A DNA stretch of 64,000 bases from Candidatus Kaiserbacteria bacterium (GCA_016432285.1 CP066682.1:15026-79025); one strand, 5' to 3'; counted from the stretch's first letter, positions 35,623 through 54,737 are shown. Translations and numbers: made by a program. Notes: a model not told the origin generated them from the sequence alone.

Positions 35623-35695
35623 GGCGACCGGCGGGATTCGAACCCGCAACCGCCTGGACCACAACCAGGAACTCTACCATTGAGCTACGGCCGCC
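35623..35695 (-). tRNA. tRNA-His (anticodon GTG) with an encoded G-1
   Basis: Cloverleaf folded by hand. Acceptor stem GCGGCCG/CGGTCGC with a G-U pair, anticodon loop TTGTGGT, T-loop TTCGAAT. An extra 5' G pairs with discriminator C73, the bacterial His identity element. CCA is not encoded. Confidence 0.9.
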
Positions 35696-35696
35696 A

Positions 35697-36197
35697 TCAC
35701 GATCGAGCCTTGAGGAGACCGCGATCACGCCCCACATCATAATGATGTACAAGGAAATGGCAATTGTGGCAGAGCCATACTAAATTTCCCTCGGCGTTGT
35801 TGAGCCGGTTCCGATCGATATGATGCACCGCGAGCACTCGGTGATCGGTCGTTTTGCACAGAACGCATAGCTTCGTTCTACCCGCTCGATCGAGCACGGT
35901 TCGGTAGGCCTGTCTGCCATGTTTCCAGTTCGCGTGCTTCGGTCCGATAAATACTTGATTCCGCCATCTTGTTTGACACGATCGGCCGCAAAAGTATTTT
36001 CCGCTTTTCGAGGTGCGAACTTGCTTGGGAGTTCGGTGGACGTCTTTGCCGCAGAGAAAGCAAGAGAATTGCGTCCGGCGTCGGTTTGAAAGATAGCCGC
36101 ACTCGCGGCTGCAATATTTTCCGTGCCCCAATCTGACGTGGCTGGGCTTTGTCTTGAATACTTTCCCGCATCGTGCGCACTCGCGCATGAGAGCCAT
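35697..36197 (-). CDS. HNH endonuclease with N-terminal zinc-ribbon repeats
   Basis: Two CxxC...CxxxC zinc ribbons (CARCGK...CSREC, CFLCGK...CGRSC), then an HNH motif (AVHHIDRNRLNNAEGNLVWLCHNCH). Its stop codon is 1 nt from the 5' end of tRNA-His. Confidence 0.8.
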   Translation of the reverse strand: MALMRECARCGKVFKTKPSHVRLGHGKYCSRECGYLSNRRRTQFSCFLCGKDVHRTPKQVRTSKSGKYFCGRSCQTRWRNQVFIGPKHANWKHGRQAYRTVLDRAGRTKLCVLCKTTDHRVLAVHHIDRNRLNNAEGNLVWLCHNCHFLVHHYDVGRDRGLLKARS

Positions 36198-36282
36198 TGA
36201 ACAAGTCTAGCAATGAAGGGAAAGGAGGTAAAGACAGCAGTTTGTGGATTATGTCCACAAGACGATGTATCTACCAATACAA

Positions 36283-36305
36283 ACGCCCGCCGAATCGGCG
36301 GGCGT
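36283..36305 (-). terminator. Intrinsic terminator hairpin
   Basis: Perfect inverted repeat acgcccgcc-gaat-cggcgggcgt, flanked by T-rich sequence on both strands. It lies between the DUF4383 gene and the HNH gene. Confidence 0.55.
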
Positions 36306-36323
36306 TTGTCCTGAAGCGCCGCG

Positions 36324-36749
36324 TTACATCGCCGGCTGCATCGAAGAGGAGGAGCCCTCTTTCATCCCAAAGCCGATCCACAAAAGTGCGACGGCAAGAA
36401 TGAGGTGGAGGACATGGTCGGCAGTGTTGGTCATGATGAGACCGAGAACGGTGTCACCCTGCACGAAGCCGACAACCGTCACGACCGCGTATACGACGCC
36501 GAATACCTGGAAGTAGAGGCGCGCGTACTGTCCGCTCATCGCGACCGCGATAGCGAGCGCTCCCGAGAGGAGGTGGATGACGTTGTGCAGGCCATCTACC
36601 TGGAAGATGCCGAGGAGCATCCCGTTTTGGGTGGCTGCCGGCACATATCCGAGAGCGCCGACCGCGAGGAAGACGATTCCGAAAACCCACGCGAGTTTCT
36701 GAACCATATATGTGTGGTTATGAATACTAATCATCGACCACCTGTTCAT
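36324..36749 (-). CDS. DUF4383-like small membrane protein
   Basis: Four TM helices with Gly/Ala/Val-rich composition typical of DUF4383. The start may be the internal Met MVQKLAW. Confidence 0.5.
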   Translation of the reverse strand: MNRWSMISIHNHTYMVQKLAWVFGIVFLAVGALGYVPAATQNGMLLGIFQVDGLHNVIHLLSGALAIAVAMSGQYARLYFQVFGVVYAVVTVVGFVQGDTVLGLIMTNTADHVLHLILAVALLWIGFGMKEGSSSSMQPAM

Positions 36750-36789
36750 TAATTGTTCTCCCCCGGAAAATAAGTGTCAAGTCCCCTTT

Positions 36790-37902
36790 TCACTCCACTT
36801 TCTCCGCGAGCACAGCCGCGCTTGAGGTGGCCACCACGCTGAACGACACGCGCCCGATCACGTGCCCGTATCGCGTGAGCACGTTGAGGCGCCACTTGCC
36901 GGGGCTCGGCTCGGTTTTGATCGAGTATCCGCGGTAGCCGCCCTCCCTGCCGCCCACGATCTCAAATGGAATCGTCTCATCGGTGCGCCATTCGTCGGCC
37001 GCTTCATCGTAGTGCTGCCACTCATGGAAGATCGTGGTCGAAAGACCGGAGGGAGCGAAGACGGCAGAGAATACATACACGGGCTCGCCCGGCGCCCGGT
37101 GGTACACGGTGTTGTACCGGAGGTAGGCCTCGTACCACCGCAAGGGCTCATAGGAGAGCCGGTAGTCGCTGCCCTCGCGCACGACGCGGTGATACACGCC
37201 ACCCTCCTTGAGGGCAAGCGGCAAGGGCGGAATCACGCCGGAAAAGTAGAAGAGGTTGAAAGTCAGAAAAATGATCGCGATCGCTCGCGCCACGTTGGTA
37301 CGCGCTGCCTTTGCGCGCTCGGGCACGAGGTACGCGAGCAGGTGGAAGAATGCGGTGATGAGAAGGAGGCTCACAATCCCGCTGACCACAAACATGTACG
37401 GGCCGATCTGTTTGAAGACGACGGGAAGAAAAAAGATGAGGAACGAAAAGAGCACTGCAAAAAACATGCTCACCTGGAAGGTGAAGCGCATGTAGAAGCG
37501 CACGAAGCGCTCGTTCCCCACGAGCAGTATCGCGAGAATCGCGATGAAAATCCACGTCAGCTCCACCGCGGCGCTCCTGCTGTAGAGCGAAAAGTACGCG
37601 GTGAAGAGCCCGCCGAAGGCAAACTGCGCCACGACGGGGATCAGTGGCGTTATTTTGATGAGCCACGGATTCTTGAGGCGGCCGGTTTCGATCAGATTGA
37701 GGATGGTGATACAGCTTGCCGCGAGCGAGAGGTAGAAAAGCAGGAGGAGATTCCCCGTCCACAGGTCGACGCGCCGCAGGAGCACGAAGTAGTCGAGAAG
37801 GAGCGCCGCGACGAGCGAGATCGGAGAAATGTAGCGCATATACCACTGCGCCAGCTCCTCCACGTTTTTGGGCAATTTGGTAAGCCGGGTGCGTGCCATC
37901 AT
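36790..37902 (-). CDS. Membrane protein with a C-terminal soluble beta domain (DUF2914-like)
   Basis: About 7 TM helices followed by about 120 aa rich in Tyr/Arg/Glu. It overlaps the PduO gene by 4 nt. Confidence 0.45.
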   Translation of the reverse strand: MMARTRLTKLPKNVEELAQWYMRYISPISLVAALLLDYFVLLRRVDLWTGNLLLLFYLSLAASCITILNLIETGRLKNPWLIKITPLIPVVAQFAFGGLFTAYFSLYSRSAAVELTWIFIAILAILLVGNERFVRFYMRFTFQVSMFFAVLFSFLIFFLPVVFKQIGPYMFVVSGIVSLLLITAFFHLLAYLVPERAKAARTNVARAIAIIFLTFNLFYFSGVIPPLPLALKEGGVYHRVVREGSDYRLSYEPLRWYEAYLRYNTVYHRAPGEPVYVFSAVFAPSGLSTTIFHEWQHYDEAADEWRTDETIPFEIVGGREGGYRGYSIKTEPSPGKWRLNVLTRYGHVIGRVSFSVVATSSAAVLAEKVE

Positions 37903-38468
37903 GGATTCGTTGTTTTGTATTCGGGAGAGCGCTCGTCCACCCCTGCGCGTTGGTTCTCGAGTCGCGCGAGCGCATAAAAGAGCGATGAGAGCCGGTTGGC
38001 GTACGCGCGACTCCCTTCGGAGACCGTGCGATCTCCCGATTCGTGGACCGTCACGAGCCTGCGCTCTGCCCGTCTTGAGATAGCACGCACGATATCGAGA
38101 CGCGCGGAAAACTCCGTGCCACCCGGCACGAGGAAGGTCTTGATCGCTGGCAACTCCTTTTCGATGTCATTGATCAAAGCGCCGAGCGCCTCGACGCTCG
38201 ATTGCGGCACCGACTTCTGCGCCCCCGCGACCTCCGCCTGAATCGTAAAGAGATGATCCTGCACTCCGAGGAGCACGTCCCGGACGGGGGTACCAGTCAC
38301 GGGAAAATCGTCGGGAGCGGCCACCTTGCACCAGCCGACAATAGTGTTGAGTTCGTCGAGCTGTCCCAAGCACTTGAAAATAGCTGAAGACTTGGAGATG
38401 CGTACGCCAGGCTTCGAGTCAAAAAGTTTGGTAGTACCGCCATCCCCCTTTCCCGTAAAAAGCGCCAT
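37899..38468 (-). CDS. PduO-type ATP:cob(I)alamin adenosyltransferase
   Basis: N-terminal MALFTGKGDGGTT motif and the helical bundle typical of PduO/MMAB adenosyltransferases. Confidence 0.8.
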   Translation of the reverse strand: MALFTGKGDGGTTKLFDSKPGVRISKSSAIFKCLGQLDELNTIVGWCKVAAPDDFPVTGTPVRDVLLGVQDHLFTIQAEVAGAQKSVPQSSVEALGALINDIEKELPAIKTFLVPGGTEFSARLDIVRAISRRAERRLVTVHESGDRTVSEGSRAYANRLSSLFYALARLENQRAGVDERSPEYKTTNP

Positions 38469-38511
38469 GCGGCAATCATAACAAACAGCGCGTCTTACTC
38501 CGTGCGGTATC

Positions 38512-39765
38512 ATGTACGGATCGACAGCCATGGAAACTCTTGAGCGTAAAGACGGGCATGATGATCTTCACACACCCTACTGTGAGATCACTCTCAAGCA
38601 GTACTCTGAAGCAGTGCCCGAGAAAAAGAAGTCGTTTGAAATCGTGATGAAAGAAATCGATCGGCAAGGAATCGAAAACTTCGAAGTGTTTCAGTCGGAA
38701 CGATTTCCCGGGGTCGCCTTTTCACACACGAAACTTCAAATAACTCCAGAATTAATACAAAAAATTCGTGAACAAACAATACCTGCACATGCGGACACGA
38801 CTGACGACGAACAGACTAGTACTGAAAATCAGGAAGAAGAAACAAATGCGAAAAGGCATGATTATTTTTTATTCACTGCGTCTGCCCCACCTCCCGACGG
38901 ACATGCGTTCACGGTCCAGGACGTGGCCATAGACCGATTCATTCGCCTCATGCCTCGCGTCGCGAATGCGATCAGACGGGGCGAGAATCCGCCGGAAGTG
39001 AGCGTCTATCTTCTTGGCGCCCCAACGGGGCTCGGGGGTTCGGTTACTCCAGAGTGGTTGGAGACGATCCGACAACGCGGATTTGAAGGACACGGCGAAC
39101 TCTATGCGGAGTTTATCGAGAAGCAGGAATCAGCGAACAAGAAATCAACCGAGGTCCCTCATATCGTACTTCAGGGTGTGTCGAAAGGAGCTGTCGTTGC
39201 AGAGAAGACCTCGAAATACCTTCCGGGGGAGCTCGCGCAACACACGCAAAGACTCCTCGATAACCCCGCCGGCGATCACGAAAAAAATCCTGCGCGCTGG
39301 CTGAAGGGGGCAGAGGTAGCGCTTGGCTACACGGGCGAGGCACTAGCGAGGATGCTTTTCGACGACACGATGAAGGGCCTTATGAAGCGCGGCAACGCAT
39401 TTATCAATTACCTGTCCCTGGAAAAGGGCATCCCGAAAGATGCGCCTGAACAACTAAAGCTCAAATGGAAAGCGACGATCGTGGAAGTGTGGACGCTCAT
39501 CAAAGGATCTTCTCTCGACACAGACGGGGTACGATCATTTATCCGTCGGGGGATGTACGATCCGGTGACCTTTAGCATGGGCCGGCTTTTTGAGATTTGG
39601 CAGAAATCAAACCAAGGAAAGGGGGCGCAATTTTATCAAGACGGAAAATCCGTCGAGGCTCCTTTCCGCGGACAGCACATGTTTTTCTACAACAGATATA
39701 AGCGCTGGAGCACGATCCTGGATTTTGCTGAAGGCTCTTCCGATACCACACCCGCCCGCCTCTAG
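38512..39765 (+). CDS. Hypothetical protein with a possible alpha/beta-hydrolase-like core
   Basis: No family recognised. There is a candidate nucleophile elbow G-V-S-K-G (GxSxG) after YLLGAPTGLGG. Codon usage in the N-terminal 400 nt is AT-richer than neighbouring genes. Confidence 0.4.
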   Translation: MYGSTAMETLERKDGHDDLHTPYCEITLKQYSEAVPEKKKSFEIVMKEIDRQGIENFEVFQSERFPGVAFSHTKLQITPELIQKIREQTIPAHADTTDDEQTSTENQEEETNAKRHDYFLFTASAPPPDGHAFTVQDVAIDRFIRLMPRVANAIRRGENPPEVSVYLLGAPTGLGGSVTPEWLETIRQRGFEGHGELYAEFIEKQESANKKSTEVPHIVLQGVSKGAVVAEKTSKYLPGELAQHTQRLLDNPAGDHEKNPARWLKGAEVALGYTGEALARMLFDDTMKGLMKRGNAFINYLSLEKGIPKDAPEQLKLKWKATIVEVWTLIKGSSLDTDGVRSFIRRGMYDPVTFSMGRLFEIWQKSNQGKGAQFYQDGKSVEAPFRGQHMFFYNRYKRWSTILDFAEGSSDTTPARL

Positions 39766-39833
39766 TGGGGTGCAGGGAGACTCGTCGACGTAAAAATCGC
39801 AATGCCGCTATCATAGCGGGCGGCACCCTCAAG

Positions 39834-40286
39834 CTAGAGTTTCTTCAGGGCCCCACCGTCTAACCGGTATGTATGCAGATCATCCAACCTCTTTGCACCA
39901 ATGGAGGAGAAAAAGGTACCAGCATCCGAATTCCAATCAAGCGCGTGCCAGTCCAGCCGCCCATAATCCCGCTCCTTACAAATATCCGCAAGCTTCTGCA
40001 TGAGTTCGCGCCCTACACCCGTTCGTCGATGAACCTCATCGACGTAGATGTCTTCCAAAAACATGCCGGGTTTCCCCTCCCATGTGGAGTAGTTCTGAAA
40101 GAAAAGAGCAAGTCCTATCGCTTTACCATTGAACTCAGCAAGTATGCACTCGAAAGGAGGTTTTGGTGATTCGAGCTGTTTCGTTACCTGCTCAGCCGAC
40201 ATGTGGACCTTCTCGCGACCCTGATGATGTTCGGCGAGTTCGTTGACTAGACGGACAATCTCCGCGGCATCTTGCGGCCCCGCCAT
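39834..40286 (-). CDS. GNAT family N-acetyltransferase
   Basis: Acetyl-CoA binding motif A (VHRRTGVGRELM) and the GNAT fold. The start was moved to MAGPQDA because the longer ORF would run into tRNA-Leu. Confidence 0.8.
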   Translation of the reverse strand: MAGPQDAAEIVRLVNELAEHHQGREKVHMSAEQVTKQLESPKPPFECILAEFNGKAIGLALFFQNYSTWEGKPGMFLEDIYVDEVHRRTGVGRELMQKLADICKERDYGRLDWHALDWNSDAGTFFSSIGAKRLDDLHTYRLDGGALKKL

Positions 40287-40330
40287 TCTCAAAGCAGGCT
40301 TTGGTTGCTCGAAGCTGTCGCGTAAATCCA

Positions 40331-40417
40331 TGGTGCCCAGGGGGGGACTCGAACCCCCACGCCCTTGCGGGCTACGCCACCTCAAGGCGTAATGTCTACC
40401 AATTTCAACACCTGGGC
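40331..40417 (-). tRNA. tRNA-Leu (anticodon GAG), long variable arm, CCA encoded
   Basis: Folded by hand. Acceptor GCCCAGG/CCTGGGC, anticodon arm ACGCC-TTGAGGT-GGCGT, a 14-nt variable arm and T-arm GGGGG-TTCGAGT-CCCCC. The 3' end reads ACCA. Confidence 0.9.
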
Positions 40418-40419
40418 AT

Positions 40420-41070
40420 TTATAACTTCTGGCCCACTATAGCCAACATTCTCACGATCTTCAATCTCTTCCTCCGCAGACAGAGGACATCGCCGCCACC
40501 GTACATCGTGCGCAGTAATTTCAACGAGGTGCGTTTTGCGTACTTGAGTTGCATCGTCGTCCCTTCGCGGTCGCGCGTTATGTGTCCTTTGACACCCAAT
40601 CGCTTGCTTATTTCCCGACGCAGCCAGTTGATGTGCGACATGCTCGCCGATGCAAACACAGTGTAGAACATGAAGCTTGATTTCCAACGCGGATCCCAAT
40701 ACGAGTAGGTGGAGCCATCGCCGTCAAACGAGCCCCGCAGAAAATCAAAAAAATATTCCCGTGGCACGCTTACCGCGCCGATTATTTTCGATTTATTCGG
40801 CATAAACCCGATAGACAGGAGGTACCGATAAAAGAGCACGTCTCCAAACTGCGCGCGCCAGTGCCCTGTGCTGTTCTTTCCGATGCTGTTTACTATGCCC
40901 AGTGCGCGAAGAAAATTTTCCACCTGCTCTCTGTCTTTTGAGACAAAGACGATGTGGCGGCCGTCAGGCGACAAGCAACCATCTGCCGCGAGAAGCCCGA
41001 GGGCATAGGCAAAGTTCGGAGACCATTCGATCTTGACTTTTCCGGCCGGACTTCTCCCCCGCCTTCTCAT
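40420..41070 (-). CDS. LAGLIDADG homing endonuclease (double-motif)
   Basis: Two LAGLIDADG motifs (YALGLLAADGC and FDFLRGSFDGDGS) about 100 aa apart. Its stop codon is 2 nt upstream of tRNA-Leu on the same strand. Confidence 0.8.
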   Translation of the reverse strand: MRRRGRSPAGKVKIEWSPNFAYALGLLAADGCLSPDGRHIVFVSKDREQVENFLRALGIVNSIGKNSTGHWRAQFGDVLFYRYLLSIGFMPNKSKIIGAVSVPREYFFDFLRGSFDGDGSTYSYWDPRWKSSFMFYTVFASASMSHINWLRREISKRLGVKGHITRDREGTTMQLKYAKRTSLKLLRTMYGGGDVLCLRRKRLKIVRMLAIVGQKL

Positions 41071-41133
41071 AACGCGATAAGTATATATCGCTCAAGTAGA
41101 TAGCGTCTACCAATTGTTTAAAAATAAAAAATG

Positions 41134-41589
41134 CTACTCCGCCTTCGCTTCGGTAGACGCAACGGGTTCGCTCTTTGCGCCAACCTCTTCCTCAGTTGCG
41201 GATTCGAGCTTTTCCTCCGCTTTCATACTGCCGCCCAAGACTCGTGTGCGGCGCAACTGTCGGCGGGCTTCGCGGGCCACTTTTTCGCGGATGTAGTAGA
41301 GCTTCGCGCGGCGCACGCGGCTTCGCTTCAGGATTTCGATTTTGTCGATCATCGGCGAGTAGAGTGGGAAGACCTTCTCGACACCAACGCCCGAGAGAAT
41401 GCGGCGGACCGTAAAGGTGGCACCCGCTTCGGTGCCGTGCTTTCGAGCGAGCACCAAGCCCTCGAAGGCCTGCAAGCGGTACTTGCCCTTTTCCTCCTCG
41501 ATCTTTTGCCAGACGCGCACGGTGTCTCCCGGCCGGAGGTCGAGATTCTTTCGCGCATCCATATCGACTGGCGATACTTTCACTGCCAT
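41134..41589 (-). CDS. rplS: 50S ribosomal protein L19, with a C-terminal extension
   Basis: L19 core ([12 protein letters not shown]...[13 protein letters not shown]...[11 protein letters not shown]). Confidence 0.9.
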
Positions 41590-41616
41590 AGTCGCGGCAC
41601 TATACCATCGTGATTT

Positions 41617-41919: not shown

Positions 41920-42032
41920 GGATAATTTTCTGTTGAAAATTTCCGCGACCCCGCCTCGCGCCGTCGCGCTCCGGCTTTCAAATCCCTGCTCCCAAATTTT
42001 ACAACGCCCCTTTCGGGGCGTCGAAAAATTCG

Positions 42033-42106
42033 GGTGCGCGGTGAGGGATTTGAACCCCCGACCTTCTCTGTGTAAAAGAGTTGCTCTACCACTGAGCTAA
42101 CCGCGC
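42033..42106 (-). tRNA. tRNA-Val (anticodon TAC)
   Basis: Folded by hand. Acceptor GCGCGGT/ACCGCGC, anticodon loop TTTACAC and T-loop TTCAAAT. CC but not a full CCA is encoded. Confidence 0.9.
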
Positions 42107-42123
42107 ATCTCTATCCCACCGTG

Positions 42124-45554: not shown

Positions 45555-45557
45555 ATG

Positions 45558-45971: not shown

Positions 45972-46315
45972 ACCGCCCGAAAAAAGGCACGCGCCGCTGC
46001 CGCATCTTGCTCGATCGCGGCCCGCAGCGCTTCGTCGCTGTCGTACACGGCGCTCTCGCGAATCTTTTTCAAGAGCTCAACCTCAATCTCTCTGCCGTAG
46101 AGGTCGACGCTCGCGTCGAGGACGTGGGCTTCGAGCAGGTTGCGCTTCTGGTCCGCAAAAGCGACCGCCGGATGCACATCCCCCGCCACGTATACGCGGG
46201 CTACGAAGATACCTGTGATCGCCGGGTCGTCGAGCGTAATGTTGAGCGTGGGAAAACCGAGCGCGGACGCGCGCTTATTGCCGTTCTGTACCACTCCTTT
46301 ATACATATGCCCCAT
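45968..46315 (-). CDS. Riboflavin kinase (flavokinase domain, RibF C-terminal-domain-like) as a separate gene
   Basis: [20 protein letters not shown] matches the flavokinase G-rich motif and the PTAN motif of bacterial RibF C-terminal domains. It is 115 aa. Confidence 0.6.
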
Positions 46316-46316
46316 G

Positions 46317-46401
46317 CGGAGGGGGTGAGATTCGAACTCACGGTGGGTTTCCCCACTCTTGTTTTCAAGACAAGCGCTTTAGACCTCTCAGCCACCCCTC
46401 C
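46317..46401 (-). tRNA. tRNA-Ser (anticodon TGA), long variable arm
   Basis: Folded by hand. Acceptor GGAGGGG/CCCCTCC, anticodon arm CTTGT-CTTGAAA-ACAAG, a long variable arm, T-loop TTCGAAT and discriminator G. Confidence 0.9.
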
Positions 46402-47446: not shown

Positions 47447-49531
47447 TTAGTTGCTTACTTCCACGGTCGTCGTGGCGTTGCGCTCGCCGCCGCCCTGCGT
47501 CGTGCACTTCAGATTGAAAGCGGCGGTGTTCGTGAGCGCGGGCGTCATCGCCGTGCCATTCACGTTTGTGTTGTTTTTGTTCTGCTCGGTGAAATCCGGA
47601 AGGTCGACACTCGAGATCACGCACGCCTGCATGCCGGAAGTCACCCACCCGATTCTCGATTGCTCGCCGCTTTTCACGTTCTTCGGATTGGCGATCAGCA
47701 CGATCGAGGGTTTTGCGACCTGCACGTTGCACTGCTGCGTCGCCACCTGTCCACCGCTCGTGCACTTGAGGCTATAGGTTGCGGTGTTGGTGTTCCCCGG
47801 CGGCGTGCCGAGCGTTGCGGTGGCGGAGCCCGATTGCGCACCGCCCGTTTGGAAACCCGACCCTTCGCTCGTCCCGGCGGAGCAGGAGTACGAGATCGCG
47901 ACAGACATGCCGACATCGGCAACATCGGGCTGGCACGAGATTTGCGCCGAGAGTGTGGCACCGCTACTGCCGGACGGGACACACTGCCAGCCGTTTACGC
48001 AGTTGCCGCCGTACGTCGGGCGCCACGCTCCGCCCGCGCAACCCGAAGGATTTGGCTGCGGTGGGGAGCTCGGGCAGTTTTGCCCCTGTGCGGGCGCGGG
48101 CGCGCAGGCGTTGCCGGCGCAACCGTACTGACACTGTTGCACCACGTTATCGACGCACTGATTGTTGCGCTGCATGAGCGACGTGCCGCTACAGAGATAC
48201 TGCGGCTGGCAGGTGCCAGGTGCCTGCGGCGTTTGATTGCCGGCCGGCGGCGGACTTTTCTTCCCTCCCTGCTGACCGCCTCCTAAAAGTTTTTGCAGTG
48301 CTTGCATCCAGTCTCCTCCGCCGCCTTTGTTGAACGTATCGTTTGTCCCGGTACCGGTTCCCGTGCCAGTGCCTGTTCCGGTCCCGGTGCCGGTCCCTGT
48401 TCCAGTGCCGGTGCCGGTTCCTGTTCCGGTTCCTTTCTTCCAGCACACATTGAGGCCCGCATCGCATCCGTACGCAGGATTCGCGGCCTTTGTCGCATCA
48501 TATGGCTCGAACGTCGCGTTCGCCGGCGGCGGAGCGGTGGCAACCTTTTGCGCTGCGAGCAATTTTCTCTCTTCCGAGAGCCTTTTGAGCGCGTCATCGT
48601 TGAGTGCGGCTTTCTGCTGAGCAGCACTCGCCTCTTTTTTCAAACCGGCCAACTGTTCGCATTCTGCCTGCGAAAGTGCTATCCGAGCGGTGGCCGAACT
48701 GAGCGAGCGGCATGTCTCATCGGTGATTCCTTGTTTGCCGAGTTGGGCGATTTGATCCGCCGCCGATTTCTGCGAAGCAGCCGCCGCATCTTTCTCAGCC
48801 TGTGCTTTTTTCTGCTCCTCATTGAGGACACTATTGAGTGCATCGTTGACTTGCGGCGAGAGCGTTCCGCCGATCTCGTCGAGAATCTTTTTCTTCTCTG
48901 CGGGAGTCTTGGCATCCTGCCAGGCCGATTTCAAGCCCTCAAGCTGTTTGTCGGCCACGTTGAGATCGTCTCCGGGCTTCACGCCGTCCGCGACCTTGCG
49001 GCAGTTGCCCTCTCCACCAATACAATATTCTACCTGGCACCTTGCCGGAGGCTGACCGGTGCAGCTTTTGAGTGACTGGCCTTTTGAGCAAGAGAGATTC
49101 GGCGCCTCCGCCGGACAGCCCACCTGCGCGCCGGCACGCACCGGCTTCACCGTCACCGACCCTTTGCTCTCAATAACTTTGTAGTTGAATCCCGGGCGGC
49201 AGCTTTGCTCAAGCTTTTTAATATCTTTCACGACACCCTCCTGCGAGCACGCCCAGTTGACGTACACGTCGTTGCCGCGCGCGTCTTTGTACACCTTGCC
49301 GGTGGTCTCTTTGTCGACGATGACGTTTGGTTTGTTCTCGGCGCTCGGCCCGGCGGGCGCAGCCATCGAAGCCGGCCCCACGGCAAGCACGCCGCTCGCT
49401 GTCTGTGTTTCCCCATTGCTGGCGACACTGCCAACAAGATCCGCGACGGCGGCCGCGGCGCCCACCATGCCAAGGAGAACGAGGCTCGCGAGAATAGAAG
49501 CGCCGCGGCTACCCCGCGTGAGTGAAGACAT
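47447..49531 (-). CDS. Large secreted cysteine-rich protein with a (Gly-Thr)n linker and C-terminal Ig-like domains
   Basis: Signal peptide, many Cys pairs, a coiled-coil Lys/Ala/Gln-rich segment and about 14 GT repeats. The two C-terminal beta domains resemble the C-terminus of the 54738..56060 protein. Confidence 0.5.
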   Translation of the reverse strand: MSSLTRGSRGASILASLVLLGMVGAAAAVADLVGSVASNGETQTASGVLAVGPASMAAPAGPSAENKPNVIVDKETTGKVYKDARGNDVYVNWACSQEGVVKDIKKLEQSCRPGFNYKVIESKGSVTVKPVRAGAQVGCPAEAPNLSCSKGQSLKSCTGQPPARCQVEYCIGGEGNCRKVADGVKPGDDLNVADKQLEGLKSAWQDAKTPAEKKKILDEIGGTLSPQVNDALNSVLNEEQKKAQAEKDAAAASQKSAADQIAQLGKQGITDETCRSLSSATARIALSQAECEQLAGLKKEASAAQQKAALNDDALKRLSEERKLLAAQKVATAPPPANATFEPYDATKAANPAYGCDAGLNVCWKKGTGTGTGTGTGTGTGTGTGTGTGTGTGTGTNDTFNKGGGGDWMQALQKLLGGGQQGGKKSPPPAGNQTPQAPGTCQPQYLCSGTSLMQRNNQCVDNVVQQCQYGCAGNACAPAPAQGQNCPSSPPQPNPSGCAGGAWRPTYGGNCVNGWQCVPSGSSGATLSAQISCQPDVADVGMSVAISYSCSAGTSEGSGFQTGGAQSGSATATLGTPPGNTNTATYSLKCTSGGQVATQQCNVQVAKPSIVLIANPKNVKSGEQSRIGWVTSGMQACVISSVDLPDFTEQNKNNTNVNGTAMTPALTNTAAFNLKCTTQGGGERNATTTVEVSN
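48345..48434. repeat. Tandem hexanucleotide repeat (GTNCCN)x15 encoding (Gly-Thr)n on the minus strand
   Basis: Fifteen consecutive imperfect copies of gtnccn were read in the sequence. They fall in frame within CDS 47447..49531. Confidence 0.8.
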
Positions 49532-49618
49532 GCACGCATGATACCCCGGGAAGCCGAAGGGTGTTTAAAAAATGTGGAAAAACGCGGAAATAATGGTACA
49601 TTTCCTTCGTTCGCTGAC

Positions 49619-49693
49619 GCCCTCGTCGTTCAATGGATAGGACGCATCCTTGCGGAGGATGTAATGTGGGTTCGATTCCTGCCGAGGGCACCA
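49619..49693 (+). tRNA. tRNA-Arg (anticodon GCG), CCA encoded
   Basis: Folded by hand. Acceptor GCCCTCG/CGAGGGC (7 Watson-Crick pairs), anticodon arm CATCC-TTGCGGA-GGATG, T-loop TTCGATT and a 3' ACCA. Confidence 0.8.
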
Positions 49694-49694
49694 A

Positions 49695-49958
49695 CTAAGC
49701 GATCGCGCGCAGTTTCTTCGTGAGGCGTGATTTCATGCGGGCTGCCGTATTCTTTTTGATCGTCCCGTTCTTTGCCGCCTTGTCGATCGCCTGGTAGAGC
49801 GCGGGAAGACCCCCGGCTGCTTCGCCCGCCTTTTTGGCGGTGATGAGTTTCGAGACGGTTTTTACGCTGGTCTTCATCGCGCGCGAGCGGCGCGCGTTGA
49901 AAACGCGGCGCCGGAGGGCGACGCGCTGTGCCTTTTTTGCCGAACTCGTATTCGCCAT
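49695..49958 (-). CDS. rpsT: 30S ribosomal protein S20
   Basis: MANTSSAKKAQRVALRRRVFNARRSRAMKT... matches S20. The start was reset from the over-extended track ORF. Confidence 0.85.
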   Translation of the reverse strand: MANTSSAKKAQRVALRRRVFNARRSRAMKTSVKTVSKLITAKKAGEAAGGLPALYQAIDKAAKNGTIKKNTAARMKSRLTKKLRAIA

Positions 49959-50022
49959 GTGCGCGGATACTACACGCTTTTTTTGGGGGGCGCAAGAAGA
50001 GCGCCTGGGGTATGATGTCTCT

Positions 50023-50598
50023 ATGATCGGACGGCTCGAGGGAGAAGTATCGGCACTGCGACCCGGATTCTGCATTCTGAGCGTGGGCGGCGTCGGGTAC
50101 CGCGTAGCGGGGACGCGCGAAGCGCTCGCTTCCCTCAAGGTGGGTGAGCGCGCCGCATTCTGGACGTACCTTGCGGTGCGCGAAGACGCGCTCGATCTCT
50201 ACGGCTTCAAAACGGAAAACGAGCAGCACTTTTTTGAAATGCTGCTTTCGGTCCCGGGCATCGGTCCCAAATCCGCACTCGCCATCCTGGATCTCGCGCT
50301 CGTGGAAACACTCCGCAGCGCGATCGCAAGCGGCAACGCTTCGTATCTCACCAAGGTGTCAGGCATCGGCAAGAAAACCGCGGAGAAAATCGTAGTCGAG
50401 CTGCGCGACAAGGTGGGCGCGAGCGCGGAAGGCGTGGAGCGGAGCCTCAGCGGCGACGAGGAGGCCCTCGAAGCGATGCGGGCGCTCGGCTACAGCCACG
50501 CCGAAGCGCGGGAAGCGTTGCGAAAAGTGCCGACGGAAGTCGTGGGCGGCAGCGCGCGGCTGCGCGAAGCGCTTCGGATTCTCGGCTCCCGTTCATGA
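50023..50598 (+). CDS. ruvA: Holliday junction DNA helicase subunit RuvA
   Basis: MIGRLEGEV..., an OB domain, two HhH motifs (LLSVPGIGPKSALAIL and KVSGIGKKTAEKIV) and a C-terminal domain III. Confidence 0.85.
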   Translation: MIGRLEGEVSALRPGFCILSVGGVGYRVAGTREALASLKVGERAAFWTYLAVREDALDLYGFKTENEQHFFEMLLSVPGIGPKSALAILDLALVETLRSAIASGNASYLTKVSGIGKKTAEKIVVELRDKVGASAEGVERSLSGDEEALEAMRALGYSHAEAREALRKVPTEVVGGSARLREALRILGSRS

Positions 50599-51872
50599 CG
50601 CCCGGGCAATCGCTCAAAATAGTGCTGAAGCACGCGCTGCCCCCGGCGCTTTTCGAAAAACTGCTCTCTGCATACCATTTTCTGCTCGCGGGCATCGGCG
50701 CGCTGCTGTACCGCTTTCCTTCGAGGAGGCTCCTTGTCGTGGGCGTTACCGGCACCAAGGGTAAGTCGAGCGTAACCGAAATGATCAACGCGATCCTGGA
50801 AGAAGCGGGGCACCGCACCGCGCTCATCAATTCGATCCGCATCAAGATCGGCGACAAATCGATGCGCAACGCGTCGGGTCGCTCCATGCCCGGGCGTTTT
50901 TTCATCCAGCGCTTTTTGCGACGCGCGCTCGCCCGCAAGTGCACGGCAGCAATCCTTGAGATGACATCTGAGGGCGCGAGGCAGCACCGCCATCGCTTTC
51001 TCGACCTCAACGCGCTCGTGTTTACCAACCTCGCGCCCGAGCATATCGAATCGCACGGCTCGTACGAAGAGTACGCCGACGCGAAATACTCGATCGGGCT
51101 TCAGCTCGTCCGCTCGCACAAACGTCCGCGCCTTTTGGTCGCCAATGCGGACGATCCTGAGAGCGCGCGCTATCTTCTCCTGCCGGTCGAATCGGCAATC
51201 CCCTTCTCGCTTTCGGCGCAGCGTCCGTGGACGGCGGACGAGCGCGGCGGCTCGTTCACCTTTGAGGGCGTACAGGTCCCCGTGCAATTGCCTGGAGAGT
51301 TTTCACTCCGCAACGCGCTCGCGGCTGCCATGCTCGCGCGAGCGCTCGGCGTGCACAGAGAAGTGATCGCACGTGCACTCGATACGCTGCGCGAGATACC
51401 CGGGCGCGCGCAGCGTATTGAGGAGGGGCAAGCCTTTACCGTTGTCGTCGACTACGCACATACTCCGGACTCTCTCAAGGCGCTCTTCGAGGCATACCGA
51501 TCGAAGCGAAAAATCTGCGTCGTGAGCGCCACCGGCGGCGGACGCGACAAGTGGAAGCGGCCCGTCATGGGGAAAGTGGCGAGCGAGCAGTGTGATGTGG
51601 TGATCGTTACCAACGAGGATCCGTACGACGAGGACCCCCGGGCGATCGCCGAGGAGGTCGCGGACGGCGCGGCAAAGGCGGTGATCGAAATCGACCGGCG
51701 CACCGCGATTCGAAGAGCGCTTGCGGAGGCTCGTCCCGGGGATGCGGTCTTGATCACCGGCAAGGGTACCGACTCGTCGATCCACGGCCCTGCGGGGAGC
51801 GAAATCCCGTGGAACGACGCCGCAGTGGTGCGGGACGAGCTGAAGAAAGTTTTGCAAAACAAAGCGCAGTGA
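50595..51872 (+). CDS. Mur ligase family protein (MurE-like central and C-terminal domains; the N-terminal domain is short or absent)
   Basis: P-loop VGVTGTKGKSSV and Mur ligase motif DYAHTPDS are present. There are only about 45 aa before the P-loop. It overlaps the ruvA stop (ATGA). Confidence 0.6.
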   Translation: MTPGQSLKIVLKHALPPALFEKLLSAYHFLLAGIGALLYRFPSRRLLVVGVTGTKGKSSVTEMINAILEEAGHRTALINSIRIKIGDKSMRNASGRSMPGRFFIQRFLRRALARKCTAAILEMTSEGARQHRHRFLDLNALVFTNLAPEHIESHGSYEEYADAKYSIGLQLVRSHKRPRLLVANADDPESARYLLLPVESAIPFSLSAQRPWTADERGGSFTFEGVQVPVQLPGEFSLRNALAAAMLARALGVHREVIARALDTLREIPGRAQRIEEGQAFTVVVDYAHTPDSLKALFEAYRSKRKICVVSATGGGRDKWKRPVMGKVASEQCDVVIVTNEDPYDEDPRAIAEEVADGAAKAVIEIDRRTAIRRALAEARPGDAVLITGKGTDSSIHGPAGSEIPWNDAAVVRDELKKVLQNKAQ

Positions 51873-51901
51873 AGGGGCGGCGCGTACTATAATCTGAATA
51901 C

Positions 51902-52924
51902 ATGGCATCGCACGGCGGCGGAGGCGGAATGGTCAAGACGATCCTGATCTGGTCGGCGGTCATCATCGCGATCATCCTCGTGCTCTTGTGGCTCATTTCG
52001 GGCGGGCCACGCAAAATCCGCGAGGCAGCCGGAGGTATCGGAAATCCGCTCTCGGCGATCTTCGGATTCGGCACCTCCAAGGGAGCGGCGTTCAAACTGC
52101 CGTGGCAGCCGAACGATCTCAACATCGCGCCGGAACTTACCTTTGGCACTGACACGGAATCGGGAGAGTCGCCGAATCCGGACGAGCTGAGCGATGCGGA
52201 GCGGGAATATGAGGAGCTCCAGCGAAAAATTGTGGCGGCCAAAAATTTCGGCGAACCGTCGCCCTATCGCGGACAGGTGTCGATCTACGAGCACGCCGCA
52301 GACGAGAGCGCGGAGAGCGAGTACGTCTCGATCCAGGCTTCGAGCGAAAACACCGCGCCCGTATCGCTCGCTGGCTGGTCGCTCCAGAGCGCGGTTACCG
52401 GTATTCGCGGCTTCGTGCCGCGCGGCACGAGCATCTTCACCTTGGGTGCGATCAACGCGCAGCAAACCATTTCGCTTGAGCCGGGAGTGTCGGCGGTGAT
52501 CGCGAGCGGCTTTTCGCCCGTCGGTACGTCATTCCGCGAAAATCTCTGCACCGGCTATCTTTCGCAAATGCAGGATTTCAGACCCTCGCTGGGGAACCGT
52601 TGCCCCGCGCCTTCGGAATCGCTGCCGCTCACCGCGGACAACGTGCGATTGTACGGCGAGAGCTGCATCGACTTCGTGCGCGAGCTCCCCGCGTGCACCT
52701 TTCCGCTCACCGTACCCAACAACCTCACCTCCGCGTGCCGCGGATTCATCGTCGAGAAGCTCTCGTATAACGGCTGCGTCGACACGTACCGTTATCGCAG
52801 CACCTTTTTGCGCGGCGTGTGGAGAATCTACCTCGGTGCTGGCAACGAGCTCTGGCGCAACGCGCACGATGTTGTCCGTCTTCTCGATGCCGAAGGACGC
52901 ACAGTAGACGTGCTCGTGTATTAG
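51902..52924 (+). CDS. Membrane-anchored hypothetical protein with a lamin-tail-domain-like region
   Basis: Gly-rich N-terminus, a TM helix, an acidic linker and a domain containing ...TAPVSLAGWSLQS (LTD-like GW motif). There are six Cys in the C-terminal third. Confidence 0.4.
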   Translation: MASHGGGGGMVKTILIWSAVIIAIILVLLWLISGGPRKIREAAGGIGNPLSAIFGFGTSKGAAFKLPWQPNDLNIAPELTFGTDTESGESPNPDELSDAEREYEELQRKIVAAKNFGEPSPYRGQVSIYEHAADESAESEYVSIQASSENTAPVSLAGWSLQSAVTGIRGFVPRGTSIFTLGAINAQQTISLEPGVSAVIASGFSPVGTSFRENLCTGYLSQMQDFRPSLGNRCPAPSESLPLTADNVRLYGESCIDFVRELPACTFPLTVPNNLTSACRGFIVEKLSYNGCVDTYRYRSTFLRGVWRIYLGAGNELWRNAHDVVRLLDAEGRTVDVLVY

Positions 52925-53385
52925 GAGCGAGCAGAAAAGAGAATCACTCCCGCAGCCACGGCGACGTTGAGGGACTCTTTTTTTCCGCGCATCGGTATTT
53001 CGATCAGCGTGTCGCACCGTTCGCGCAGCTTCGGCGAGAGCCCGCGCACCTCGTTGCCAAACACATAGAGTACGCGCCCTTTCGGCTTCAGCTTCCGATA
53101 ATCCTTCGATCGCGGATCCTGTTCGACGCCGACGATCCTCCACCCCGACTTTCGCAGTGTGGCGATCACCGATTCGGCGGATGCACTTTTTTGCCACGGA
53201 ATGAACTGCTCGGCACCGAGCGCTGTCTTCGCGATCTCCTTTTGCGGACGGCCGAACCGATCGATCGGCGCGGGTGTGAACCCGGAGAGATAGACCTTCG
53301 ATACGCCGGCGGCATCGGCGGTGCGAAAAATGGATCCGACGTTGTGCGTGCTGCGGACGTTGTGCAAAAGGATCGCGATTTCCAT
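52921..53385 (-). CDS. SpoU/TrmH-family RNA 2'-O-methyltransferase
   Basis: SPOUT motifs HNVGSIFRTADAAG, VGVEQ and IEIPMRGKKESLNVAVAAGV. Confidence 0.8.
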   Translation of the reverse strand: MEIAILLHNVRSTHNVGSIFRTADAAGVSKVYLSGFTPAPIDRFGRPQKEIAKTALGAEQFIPWQKSASAESVIATLRKSGWRIVGVEQDPRSKDYRKLKPKGRVLYVFGNEVRGLSPKLRERCDTLIEIPMRGKKESLNVAVAAGVILFSARS

Positions 53386-53422
53386 GCGGCACACTGTATA
53401 GGCAATACGCTATACTGTCTCC

Positions 53423-53767
53423 ATGCTCTCGGTTTTCCCCGAAATCCTCTACCTCTCACCATTCGCACCCTTTCTTATTCGCGTCGCGCTTGCGGTCGTC
53501 TTTGGATACGCGGCATGGCAACACTTACAGCGAAATGATATGCCTTCTCGCGTACTCGCGGTCGGCGAGATCGCGGTAGCGATCGCGTTTGTGGCGGGCT
53601 GGTGGACGCAGCCGGCGGCGATTCTTGCCACGATCGTGGGCGCGATCTGGTTTTTCCAACCAACGAGCCGCGTCTATGCCCTGAGCACGATCCTGCTTTC
53701 GATCTTGCTTCCCTTCACGCTCCTCATCACCGGCGCCGGCGCACTCGCCTTCGATCTGCCGCTCTAA
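53423..53767 (+). CDS. DoxX-family small membrane protein
   Basis: Three or four TM helices of DoxX-like size and hydrophobicity pattern. Confidence 0.6.
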   Translation: MLSVFPEILYLSPFAPFLIRVALAVVFGYAAWQHLQRNDMPSRVLAVGEIAVAIAFVAGWWTQPAAILATIVGAIWFFQPTSRVYALSTILLSILLPFTLLITGAGALAFDLPL

Positions 53768-53806
53768 TAGCATCTCGAACCGCTGTCTGTTACGATGCAA
53801 AGGTAG

Positions 53807-53878
53807 CCGCCCGTAGCTCAGTGGTAGAGCAGACGCCTTTTAAGCGTAAGGTCGTTGGATCGTTCCCAACCGGGCGGA
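53807..53878 (+). tRNA. tRNA-Lys (anticodon TTT), atypical
   Basis: Folded by hand. Acceptor CCGCCCG/CGGGCGG (7 Watson-Crick pairs, C1-G72), D-arm GCTC-AGTGGTA-GAGC and anticodon loop CTTTTAA. The T-loop ATCGTTC has A54/T58 swapped relative to the usual T54/A58. CCA is not encoded. Confidence 0.75.
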
Positions 53879-53879
53879 C

Positions 53880-54737
53880 ATGAATGCCTTCGCCAAACGC
53901 TGCGTCGAACTGCGAAAATCGGATCACACGCTCAATGAGATATCCGAGATAACCGGACGACCCAAAACGTCAGTGTATCCCTACATCCGCCACATGCCGC
54001 TCAGCAGGGAGCGGAAAGAGGCGGTTCTCGATTCGTATCGGTTGCGCGTGCGCAAAATTGCCGCGCGGAGGAAAGGAAAGAGCGTCAGAAGCTTCAAGAG
54101 ATTCACTTCGTGGAGTCCGCAAACGGTATCGCTCGTATCGCATCTGATTTTTGACGGCGAGCTGAACCGCTCCGGTTGTAGTTACAACAACCGAAGCTCG
54201 AGTCTCATTGCGCACGTACGGGAGTGTATGAGGCGGATATACGATTACGATCCGAGAAGCTACGTGGATCCCAAGAGCAAGGTAATCCGCATTAGCTATT
54301 ACAACGTCGCTCTTGGACAATACCTGACACGAAAGTCGCGAGAGCTACTCGGCACAATCGATGTCATGTCGACGGATTCCAAAAAGGAGTTCTTGAAAGC
54401 TTTTTTCAACGACGAGGGCTGCATGGACTTTAGGCCCGAAAGAAATGTCCGGCAGATTCGTGGTTATCAAAAGAACGTGGCCGTCCTACAGATTGTAAAG
54501 GGTCTTCTGCTCGATATGGGAATTGAATCAACAGTTAAGAAACCAAATGAAGTCGTGATCGTCGGTCGAGAGAATCTTTTGAGATTTGGGGAAAAAGTAA
54601 ACTTCTCCCCAGGGGTGCGCATCAATGGATTGCGGTCGAACAGCCTCTGGAAGCAGCCGATGGAGAAGCGCGAACTTCTCGAGCGCGCGATCGCATCGTA
54701 CAAACCCGCAGGCAGCAGCGGTGTGCATCGCCGCTGA
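53880..54737 (+). CDS. LAGLIDADG-type homing endonuclease with an N-terminal HTH
   Basis: Motifs LVSHLIFDGELN and FLKAFFNDEGCMD lie about 100 aa apart, preceded by an HTH (TLNEISEITGRPKTSVYPYI). The ATG starts 2 nt after the tRNA-Lys discriminator base. Confidence 0.6.
   Translation: MNAFAKRCVELRKSDHTLNEISEITGRPKTSVYPYIRHMPLSRERKEAVLDSYRLRVRKIAARRKGKSVRSFKRFTSWSPQTVSLVSHLIFDGELNRSGCSYNNRSSSLIAHVRECMRRIYDYDPRSYVDPKSKVIRISYYNVALGQYLTRKSRELLGTIDVMSTDSKKEFLKAFFNDEGCMDFRPERNVRQIRGYQKNVAVLQIVKGLLLDMGIESTVKKPNEVVIVGRENLLRFGEKVNFSPGVRINGLRSNSLWKQPMEKRELLERAIASYKPAGSSGVHRR

Follow-up and report, generated by a model that had tools for sequence, protein, structure and literature searches.

The DNA analysed here is a 64,000-nt stretch of a Candidatus Kaiserbacteria bacterium chromosome (GCA_016432285.1, CP066682.1:15026-79025; hereafter the window), in which three genes resembling those of homing endonucleases each stand directly beside a transfer RNA (tRNA) gene. 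The window is compact chromosome with a GC content of ~0.58, and its source organism is a member of the Parcubacteria/Paceibacteria within the Patescibacteria (Candidate Phyla Radiation). The three open reading frames (ORFs), referred to here as HNH166, LAG216 and LAG285, are paired with tRNA-His(GTG), tRNA-Leu(GAG) and tRNA-Lys(UUU), respectively (Table 1).

Table 1. Features of the three gene-tRNA pairs, with positions counted from the first base of the window.
Feature	Position	Strand	Basis and remarks
tRNA-His(GTG), including encoded G-1 at 35695	35622..35695	(-)	ARAGORN; Rfam 66.3 bits; body 35622-35694
HNH166 gene	35697..36197	(-)	ORF, 166 aa, TGA stop at 35699-35697
HNH166 promoter-like site	36204..36232	(-)	-35 TTTACC (36232-36227), 17-nt spacer, -10 TAGACT (36209-36204); consensus match
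DnaA-box-like motif TAATCCACA	36243..36251	(-)	8/9 match to TTATCCACA; left edge of HNH166 cassette
Weak tRNA-His 5'-half-like relic (G-1 to position 37) GGCGGGCGTTTGTATTGGTAGATACATCGTCTTGTGG	36255..36291	(-)	Local alignment to the window tRNA-His scores 24, borderline; ends TTGTGG
tRNA-Leu(GAG), CCA encoded	40331..40417	(-)	ARAGORN; Rfam 46.1 bits
LAG216 gene, double-motif LAGLIDADG	40420..41070	(-)	ORF, 216 aa, TAA stop, Pfam LAGLIDADG_3
Candidate tRNA promoter TTGAAG-17-TATAGT	40436..40464	(-)	Within LAG216 last codons, 18 nt before tRNA-Leu; consensus match
LAG216 promoter-like site TAGACG-18-TATACT	41080..41109	(-)	-10 ends 9 nt before ATG at 41070; consensus match
Conserved 23-nt cassette element TTGGTAGACGCTATCTACTTGAG	41091..41113	(-)	Single occurrence in window; like tRNA-Leu(GAG) D-loop to anticodon loop, one extra base
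tRNA-Lys(UUU), C1-G72 first pair, CCA not encoded	53807..53879	(+)	ARAGORN; Rfam 62.5 bits
LAG285 gene, helix-turn-helix plus double-motif LAGLIDADG	53880..54737	(+)	ORF, 285 aa, Pfam LAGLIDADG_3

Gene-tRNA junctions in the window

In all three pairs, the gene and the tRNA share one strand and the space between them is minimal. Direct reading of the window places tRNA-His 1-2 nt beyond the HNH166 stop codon, tRNA-Leu(GAG) begins 2 nt past the stop of LAG216, and the discriminator base of tRNA-Lys (53878) is followed by a single base and then by the LAG285 ATG at 53880. An earlier reading of this DNA from sequence alone (the sequence-only reading) had described the HNH gene abutting tRNA-His, the double-motif LAGLIDADG gene ending 2 nt from tRNA-Leu(GAG), the LAGLIDADG gene right after tRNA-Lys and the common polarity within each pair, and on all of these points it is borne out. 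Its count of eight tRNA genes in the window is one too high, as ARAGORN finds seven and Rfam agrees on all seven.

The adjacency also stands up against random placement, a comparison that the sequence-only reading had proposed. A Pfam scan of 40 other window ORFs gave no homing-endonuclease domain, and all three genes that carry one touch a tRNA, a contact made by about 12 of the roughly 65 gene positions. Furthermore, the tRNA partner of each family is the same at every evaluable locus in other genomes (LAG216 77/77, HNH166 9/9, LAG285 6/6).

The tightness of the junctions has to be read with more care. Ordinary window genes abut tRNAs just as closely, which weighs against assigning the small gap any special meaning: a GNAT ORF can begin at an ATG at 40331-40329, holding the last A of the tRNA-Leu CCA end in common with it, and a riboflavin-kinase ORF starts at 46315, the base directly after tRNA-Ser (46316-46401). 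A start codon thus lies immediately after three of the seven window tRNAs (tRNA-Lys with LAG285, and those followed by GNAT and riboflavin kinase), which hints that tRNA-punctuated leaderless mRNAs are a general mode in the source genome. Because flush junctions are a habit of this genome, it is the fidelity of each family to its partner that is distinctive, and not the small gap. The tiny gaps pointed out in the sequence-only reading stand, but they are in part a style of the source genome.

These junctions bear on a passive explanation, according to which nuclease genes delivered by other means survive at tRNA flanks without any tRNA gene being cut, because in a very compact genome these flanks are transcribed sites where a gene can land safely, or hot spots of recombination. 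Minimal intergenic space, the flush GNAT and riboflavin-kinase genes, and repeat structures at tRNA-Leu 3' ends that are independent of LAG216 (see below) all agree with such accumulation, and tRNA genes are classical integration sites (PMC2853133). Passive landing does not predict, however, that each family keeps to one tRNA identity and one side of it in all of the loci counted above, whatever the other neighbours, or that the LAG285 junction is base-identical in 6/6 loci. The cassettes, moreover, measure 0.6-0.9 kb and consist of one ORF each, neither an integrase nor a transposase being present between the genes on either side, and the HNH cassette lies within an older tRNA-His at the anticodon-loop region. 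As a whole, we regard passive accumulation as very unlikely.

Protein families and patchy occupancy

LAG216 matches Pfam LAGLIDADG_3 at 35.2 bits (cutoff 22.5) in two stretches. Its motifs, LLAADG and SFDGDG, are those of a monomeric double-motif protein, and D29-G30 and D115-G-D-G118 are invariant in 25 sequences. The family profile matches the archaeal intron endonuclease I-Tsp061I (PDB 2DCH) with an E value of 1e-5, and at least 2721 homologues of about 212-249 residues were found at 55-67% identity. A protein labelled hypothetical in a Candidatus Kaiserbacteria metagenome-assembled genome matches the window LAG216 with 100% identity. We surveyed the best 80 of 296 loci on GTDB contigs from one genome per species (loci are given below by L number). 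In this set rplS lies upstream of LAG216 in 74/80 loci, and tRNA-Leu comes next on the same strand in all 77 that could be evaluated, with a gap of -44 to +31 nt and an anticodon that is GAG in 75, AAG in one and unclear in one. The distances between the tRNA-Leu genes follow those between the LAG216 genes (Mantel r 0.20, p 0.001; partial r 0.18) more than those of ribosomal protein L19 (r 0.07, p 0.08; partial r 0.02), which fits a shared history of tRNA and nuclease. A comparison of LAG216 with L19 distances as a means of separating vertical from horizontal descent was rejected as uninformative, given saturation near 0.40 and 'close' pairs of only ~80% DNA identity.

Many bin contigs break within ~100 nt after LAG216-tRNA-Leu (L002, L005, L007, L020, L021, L027, L036, L055, L066 and others). 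Assemblies may tend to fragment at this pair, possibly from strain-level presence and absence or from nearby repeats. The viral contigs of IMG/VR gave no sign of a phage vector for LAG216, holding only distant LAGLIDADG relatives at 23-33% identity.

HNH166 is assigned to its class more tentatively. Its Pfam matches to HNH_3 (16.6 bits, cutoff 24.8) and HNH (10.6 bits, cutoff 21.4) remain below the cutoffs and are accompanied by TRASH-like matches, while the HNH part of the NCBIfam IscB model is matched at an E value of 4e-5 and the endonuclease domain of group II intron maturases at 0.003. The profile search that had been suggested is hence passed by both LAGLIDADG ORFs, whereas the HNH ORF stays below the Pfam cutoffs and is a probable HNH nuclease from its match to IscB. 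Across 25 homologues the signature CxxC...HH..N..CxxCH..H is invariant, as are C6, C9, C28, C32, C45, C48, C69, C73, C110 and C113, followed by H124, H125, D127, N137, C142, C145, H146 and H150. This corresponds to two Cys4 zinc-finger-like (zinc-ribbon-like) units and a subsequent putative HNH (beta-beta-alpha-metal) domain. The AlphaFold2 (AF2) model has a mean predicted local distance difference test score (pLDDT) of 83 and shows a strand-strand-helix arrangement at residues 121-152. Foldseek gave no significant whole-chain match for this model; the top local fold matches are HNH nucleases (Cap5, McrA and the HNH domains of Cas9/IscB), all with E values above 0.2.

The HNH166 family comprises 763 homologues at 53-75% identity, and tRNA-His lies 2-41 nt past the stop codon in 9/9 independent loci. 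Tandem pairs of HNH166 paralogues, with 45-49% identity to the window protein, sit upstream of tRNA-His at L063 (5036-5987) and L043 (4242-5154), the contig of the latter ending before the tRNA.

LAG285 combines an N-terminal helix-turn-helix with a monomeric double-motif LAGLIDADG endonuclease. It matches LAGLIDADG_3 at 31.8 bits (cutoff 22.5), its motifs are LIFDGE and FFNDEG, and D92-G93 and E179-G180 are invariant in 26 sequences. The AF2 model (pLDDT 90.7, predicted template modelling score, pTM, 0.75) matches I-DmoI in Foldseek with an E value of 2e-7 and a target-normalised template modelling (TM) score of 0.66-0.69, and it also matches intein endonucleases and I-Tsp061I, with E values of 1e-7 to 1e-5 overall, in agreement with the alpha-beta-beta-alpha-beta-beta-alpha core and DNA-binding saddle of LAGLIDADG enzymes. 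A total of 282 homologues were detected. In six independent tRNA-Lys/LAG285 loci, the junction of discriminator A, one nucleotide and ATG is identical, and it is kept although the surrounding genes are inverted or replaced.

In the NCBI record the window gene is given as 247 aa and begins at a Met further downstream. The homologues, however, extend over 96-100% of the 285-aa form with alignments that start at Met-1, so that the public annotation is probably too short, and the truncation is probably due to a true start that touches the tRNA. As the junction leaves no space for a promoter, LAG285 most likely lacks one of its own and would be co-transcribed with tRNA-Lys, becoming a leaderless mRNA after tRNA 3' processing. 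The LAG285-linked tRNA-Lys(UUU) has a C1-G72 pair in 4/6 loci and never an encoded CCA (window 53807-53879; L081, L087, L240), unlike the window tRNA-Leu and tRNA-His, which encode CCA. Just upstream of tRNA-Lys at L087 (~2760-2926) are four tandem repeats of ~42 nt, each consisting of about the first 21 nt of tRNA-Lys and a GATAAT-type -10 box.

Loci gathered by their nuclease cannot show its absence, and metagenomes were hence scanned with a tRNA-Leu(GAG) pattern only. Of 120 matches, 15 had rplS just upstream, with LAG216 present in two and absent from 13. The empty rplS-tRNA-Leu spacers measure 10-230 nt, and no remnant of LAG216 was found in them. Empty and occupied sites occur in close relatives, as judged by L19 identities of 90% (L182/L042), 91% (L207/L057) and 88% (L126/L006). 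More specifically, L207 and L057 differ by a clean indel of ~800 nt that contains LAG216 and are collinear to either side of it.

A similar picture emerged for HNH166, which is present at two of 32 tRNA-His genes sampled regardless of the nuclease and reduced to its last 23 codons, a decayed relic, at another (L080). Occupied and empty versions of the same neighbourhood were found here as well: DUF2914 is followed by tRNA-His in L033 and by HNH and tRNA-His in L090, L094 and L243, and Cob_adeno_trans is followed by tRNA-His in 11 loci and by HNH and tRNA-His in L244. The presence/absence check laid out in the sequence-only reading has thus yielded empty sites in relatives for both families, and its question about catalytic residues is answered by their invariance in all three, with L080 holding a decayed HNH166 copy. 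Judged from these loci, LAG216 and HNH166 are dispensable. Taken together, a constant site, a patchy distribution, decay in places and active sites that stay intact form the signature of homing-endonuclease genes.

This pattern has to be weighed against the possibility of domesticated host nucleases, whose job would be tied to the cognate tRNA (processing, quality control or regulation), which would be its operon partners and whose absences would be losses in reduced genomes. Purifying selection is indeed strong, as seen in 55-67% identity across many Paceibacteria candidate families, invariant active sites and uniform lengths; no pseudogene occurs among the 80 best LAG216 loci, the divergence of LAG216 is of similar scale to that of L19, and co-transcription with the tRNA is likely. 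A fixed domesticated gene was even the favoured view after the 77/77 pairs and rplS at 74/80 loci, until the 13 empty sites of the tRNA-seeded scan overturned it. Relatives with L19 88-91% identical keep the tRNA and its neighbours without the gene, 13/15 tRNA-seeded loci are empty, and HNH166 is absent from 29/32 tRNA-His loci, with one of the other three being the 23-residue relic. Domestication would further need the independent recruitment of three unrelated DNA-endonuclease folds, the top structural matches are intron- and intein-encoded DNA homing endonucleases, and split relics of an older tRNA-His surround the HNH cassette. We therefore consider domestication unlikely. The related proposal of a co-transcribed nuclease for tRNA-end processing or defence, offered as an alternative in the sequence-only reading, is not supported, in view of close relatives that have the same tRNA without the gene and of the DNA homing-endonuclease folds and active sites.

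We conclude, with a probability of roughly 0.7, that the three genes are free-standing homing-endonuclease genes and that each travels in Paceibacteria/Parcubacteria chromosomes as a small selfish cassette linked to one tRNA gene. This selfish-element reading has good support for LAG216 and HNH166; for LAG285 it is plausible. Its core had been proposed before, and the empty sites, the HNH relic, the invariant active sites and the constant tRNA uphold it. The single family envisaged at the time gives way to three unrelated ones, the two LAGLIDADG families having no similarity at the level of BLAST and the third being HNH; within each, the tRNA partner and the side on which it lies are constant, irrespective of the remaining neighbourhood.

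tRNA relics and cassette architecture

To find remains of older tRNA genes, a tRNA-His profile hidden Markov model (HMM) was run over the HNH166 loci together with shuffled controls (n=520), none of which reached 5 bits. At L244, a tRNA-His 5' half (HMM 1-34, E 3e-5) is found 52-91 nt ahead of the HNH start and upstream of the HNH promoter, and directly after the complete tRNA-His comes a 3' part (HMM 47-73, E 2e-3). These relics are mutually complementary at the acceptor (GCGACCG/CGGTCGC), which differs from that of the complete gene (GTGGCTG/CAGCCAC). They belong to the 'GGTGTAACGG' type of tRNA-His that is still in use in L033, while the complete L244 gene is of the 'GTAGCTCAG' type. L032 retains a 5' half (HMM 1-39, E 7.6e-7) that is equally far from the HNH start, and the relic in the window sits where L032 and L244 have theirs.

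With halves of the older type flanking the unit, the cassette entered the anticodon-loop region of a resident tRNA-His. The HNH166 cassette can accordingly be described as a unit of DnaA-box-like motif, promoter, HNH gene and complete tRNA-His, which split the resident gene and brought a substitute tRNA with it. The sequence-only reading had envisaged insertion flush against tRNA genes; the tie to a tRNA gene is upheld, but by the relics at L244 and L032 HNH166 went into tRNA-His and not beside it.

Two distinct types of tRNA-His coexist in the loci compared, one with the D-arm TGGTGTAACGGT..CAC (L033 5671-5744, L090, L094, L026) and one with TAGCTCA..GGTAGAGC (window, L092, L096, L244). HNH166 adjoins either type, and L244 combines a relic of the former with a live gene of the latter.

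At the LAG216 loci, a 23-nt element, TTGGTAKACGCTAYNNNCTTGAG, precedes the ATG by 0-50 nt in at least 64/80 cases and has a fixed length in 61 of those 64. A tRNA-Leu HMM (positions about 13-41) matches this element at E below 1 in 29/80 loci, which are not independent of one another, and in 0/400 shuffles. The element ends at CTTGAG, the anticodon, and holds the -35 box of the nuclease promoter. It is absent from empty rplS-tRNA-Leu sites, whose tRNA-Leu is slightly closer to the element than that of occupied sites (p = 0.03). At the opposite end of the gene, a promoter-like site of the form TTGAA(A/G)-17-TA(T/C)A(G/A)T was found in 48/75 loci, at nearly 7x the density in the remaining ORF sequence (0.097 sites per 100 nt). 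From these features, the LAG216 cassette is probably built like that of HNH166, with a tRNA-Leu-like relic holding a promoter, the nuclease gene, an embedded tRNA promoter and tRNA-Leu.

The promoter-like sites of the nucleases lie very close to the genes. The -10 box of HNH166 ends 6 nt ahead of the ATG in the window, and a -10-like hexamer is found 6-7 nt ahead of the start codon in 5/7 HNH166 loci. For LAG216, the hexamer ends 6 nt before the start codon in 31/80 loci, 7 nt in eight and 9 nt in seven. Because such a gap leaves no room for a ribosome-binding site, the HNH166 and LAG216 mRNAs are probably leaderless or nearly so. Together with a tRNA followed by ATG at 6/6 LAG285 loci and two ordinary window genes, the -10 box 6 nt before the start suggests that leaderless mRNAs, some of them tRNA-processed, may be regular in these organisms.

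At their upstream edge, and in one or the other orientation, the nuclease cassettes carry a motif resembling the DnaA-box consensus TTATCCACA. With up to one mismatch, it is present in 26/80 LAG216 upstream regions, where about 3 would be expected, at ~50-59 nt upstream of the start codon (L001-L080), and it lies 52-58 nt before the start in 5/7 HNH166 loci. Of the 16 perfect TTATCCACA copies in 442 kb of loci, 11 fall within the 130-nt upstream regions. The sequence 'GTGGATAA' upstream of the LAG216 element was considered as an acceptor-stem relic and rejected, being the reverse of TTATCCACA and occurring in both orientations and at other cassettes too.

The 3' flank of tRNA-Leu(GAG) has repeats of its own. 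The T-arm/acceptor 3' strand recurs in inverted form, over 11-20 nt, ~40-70 nt after the tRNA, and a direct repeat of the tRNA 3' end, 14-22 nt long and with the lineage's own acceptor sequence, follows at +95 to +170 nt, with a structured stretch between the two (L026 3749+143, L030, L051, L031, L032, L034, L044, L046, L068, L133 and the empty L182 and L168). The tRNA-Leu 3'-end repeats at 40-170 nt downstream were tried as the missing LAG216 3' relic and discarded, as they are present at the empty L182 and L168 too. Because they are found both with and without LAG216, these repeats are an element or footprint separate from it.

The relic halves and the anticodon boundary raise the question of an intron origin, in which the genes once resided in group I introns of tRNA anticodon loops and became free-standing after ribozyme decay and tRNA duplication or repair. 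In Patescibacteria there is an enrichment of group I introns at anticodon position 35/36, and HNH genes reside in four of those found in tRNA-Asn (PMC13011429); the HNH166 relics end at the anticodon loop, as does the LAG216 element at its CTTGAG. Each of the three genes, however, has a complete, uninterrupted tRNA beside it. These tRNAs are continuous by ARAGORN and Rfam, in keeping with the sequence-only reading that they are not intron-interrupted, and no group I or group II intron model matched around the three genes even at E up to 1, where Rfam gives tRNAs only. In addition, the L244 relic halves are of another tRNA-His type than the complete gene, which points to an incoming cassette and not to decay in place. 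An intron past is thus quite unlikely in our view; as it concerns origin, it is compatible with present behaviour as free-standing cassettes.

For the selfish cassettes, we propose the following course of events. The nuclease would cut a cassette-free allele of its cognate tRNA gene, and the break would be repaired from a cassette-bearing copy by RecA, RuvA, RuvX and RecO, all of which are encoded in the window. Pfam scans of the window also identified PilM/PilN, a Mur ligase, ribosomal protein L19, NusG and EF-P. The cassette-borne tRNA, presumably resistant to cutting, would keep the cell alive. LAG285 would be transcribed with tRNA-Lys and freed by tRNA 3' processing as a leaderless mRNA.

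In its strongest form, this amounts to natural 'cleave-and-rescue' elements, which we put forward as a tentative extension. A nuclease that destroys an essential single-copy tRNA gene would travel with a resistant substitute, whose promoter is buried in the nuclease gene. Such an element would need only conserved tRNA sequence as a landing site and could hop between distant Patescibacteria, swapping tRNA alleles as it goes, as the replaced tRNA-His type of L244 may exemplify; the design would have evolved independently for each family and tRNA. Two loci, L244 and L032, support the 'cleave and rescue' mechanism as a candidate.

Several observations weigh against the selfish-cassette reading and its mechanism. 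Cleavage of tRNA genes by the three nucleases is inferred from position and relics. Clear split-tRNA relics occur in only 2/13 HNH166 loci, the relic in the window is borderline and shares its first bases with the 3' arm of the upstream gene's terminator hairpin, and neither tRNA-Lys relics nor empty sites were found for LAG285, whose occupancy was not surveyed. For LAG216, the likeness between element and tRNA comes down to one ancestral motif with one extra base, and promoter function accounts for part of the element's conservation. The best 80 LAG216 ORFs are all intact and the protein is conserved about as well as L19 (mean distance 0.41 vs 0.41), both of which would fit a host function too. 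LAG216 distances plateau near 0.40, such that tree congruence cannot tell repeated loss from repeated gain, and the 13 empty loci were placed taxonomically by L19 similarity alone.

Relation to known systems and implications

The closest parallel to the gene-tRNA pairs is found in phage T4, where segB is a free-standing gene between tRNA-Arg and tRNA-Ile that targets the tRNA region and promotes its inheritance (PMC2988022). Host promoters within T4 endonuclease genes are thought to guard the selfish gene from deletion and to favour its retention (PMC2988022). Like SegB and the other Seg/Mob enzymes, the window genes stand outside introns and inteins as ORFs with start and stop codons of their own, are found at tRNA genes and are sporadic among relatives. 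Preferential inheritance of a linked region and embedded promoters would be shared as well, the promoters here being consensus matches in LAG216 and the inheritance a deduction. In contrast to SegB, a GIY-YIG enzyme of a phage, the window genes encode HNH and LAGLIDADG proteins in cellular chromosomes of Patescibacteria, and Pfam and NCBIfam searches gave no GIY-YIG domain in any of the three. Across hundreds of species, each family keeps to one tRNA identity, and HNH166 sits inside a split older tRNA gene and carries a whole replacement tRNA. The T4 enzymes cut hundreds of bases from their own genes, whereas the HNH166 relic boundary abuts the cassette. By analogy, the three window proteins would be SegB-like in their working, but they lie outside the SegB protein family.

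Within the Patescibacteria, group I introns occur in tRNA anticodon loops, with HNH genes in tRNA-Asn introns (PMC13011429), and LAGLIDADG genes in rRNA insertions (PMC11270868). The cassettes share with these endonuclease-bearing introns the phylum, the nuclease classes and the anticodon-loop hot spot. They differ from them in having no ribozyme match, an uninterrupted tRNA and a second complete tRNA copy in place of splicing.

Integrative elements and restriction-modification units are known to insert with partial duplication of a tRNA gene, termed 'long target duplication' (PMC2853133). As in those units, pieces of the target tRNA flank the insert and tRNA function is preserved. The duplication made by an integrase usually runs from the anticodon loop to the tRNA 3' end. 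The HNH166 relics do not form such a 3' direct repeat; the 5' half is on one side and the 3' part on the other. Unlike integrase islands, the HNH166 cassette brings a whole tRNA and leaves both old halves as dead relics, and no recombinase or integrase is present in the 0.6-0.9 kb single-ORF units, whose cargo is one homing endonuclease.

At the protein level, the window LAGLIDADG proteins resemble I-DmoI and I-Tsp061I in their monomeric two-motif fold of about 190-215 residues with an acidic residue per motif. They are distinguished from both by a sequence identity of only 15-21%, by being bacterial and free-standing and, in LAG285, by an extra helix-turn-helix. Their presumed targets are tRNA genes, as opposed to rRNA genes for I-DmoI and I-Tsp061I.

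Synthetic cleave-and-rescue drives combine a nuclease against an essential gene with a tightly linked resistant copy. The logic of the HNH166 cassette matches this design, with the resistance of the cassette tRNA being presumed. Unlike the synthetic drives, the cassettes would spread by homologous repair and horizontal transfer in bacteria, and not by sexual inheritance. In the tRNA-punctuation model of mitochondria, excision of flanking tRNAs frees mRNAs that are translated leaderless. The position of tRNA-Lys directly before the LAG285 ATG resembles this arrangement, with the processing here being predicted. Our literature search found no description of these nuclease gene-tRNA pairs.

A fourth candidate family, labelled 'cluster 5', was seen beside other tRNAs in relatives. 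Its members are ~220 aa long, have a helix-turn-helix at the N-terminus and show a LAGLIDADG-like motif, for example FIAGLFLYWGEG (L056 547-1236; L058 40-711; L061 1086-1496; L070 5205-5876; L078 4210-4872). Pfam finds the helix-turn-helix only and no LAGLIDADG domain in these proteins, so that their nuclease nature is read from a motif seen by eye. The genes end at, or 10 nt inside, tRNA-Ile(TAT), tRNA-Val(GAC) or tRNA-Gly(GCC). In L070 and L078 the gene separates tRNA-Phe from tRNA-Gly; the spacing of these two tRNAs in L058 is 12 nt. DnaA-box-like motifs are also present upstream of the genes in L056, L070 and L078, and no tRNA relics were found upstream of 'cluster 5' genes.

These results describe a lineage-wide set of tRNA-tied homing-endonuclease cassettes that is more general than the three pairs of the window. 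Free-standing homing endonucleases are well studied in phages and organelles and hardly in bacterial chromosomes. At least three families, with thousands of members labelled 'hypothetical protein', hereby gain an assigned role and a likely target. If the cassette model is true, no intron is required for a selfish nuclease to enter an essential RNA gene, since a spare copy comes with it, and the cassettes would be a natural counterpart to engineered cleave-and-rescue drives. The model would then provide new long-target nucleases with sites in tRNA genes, as well as a mechanism for the horizontal replacement of tRNA genes in the Candidate Phyla Radiation.

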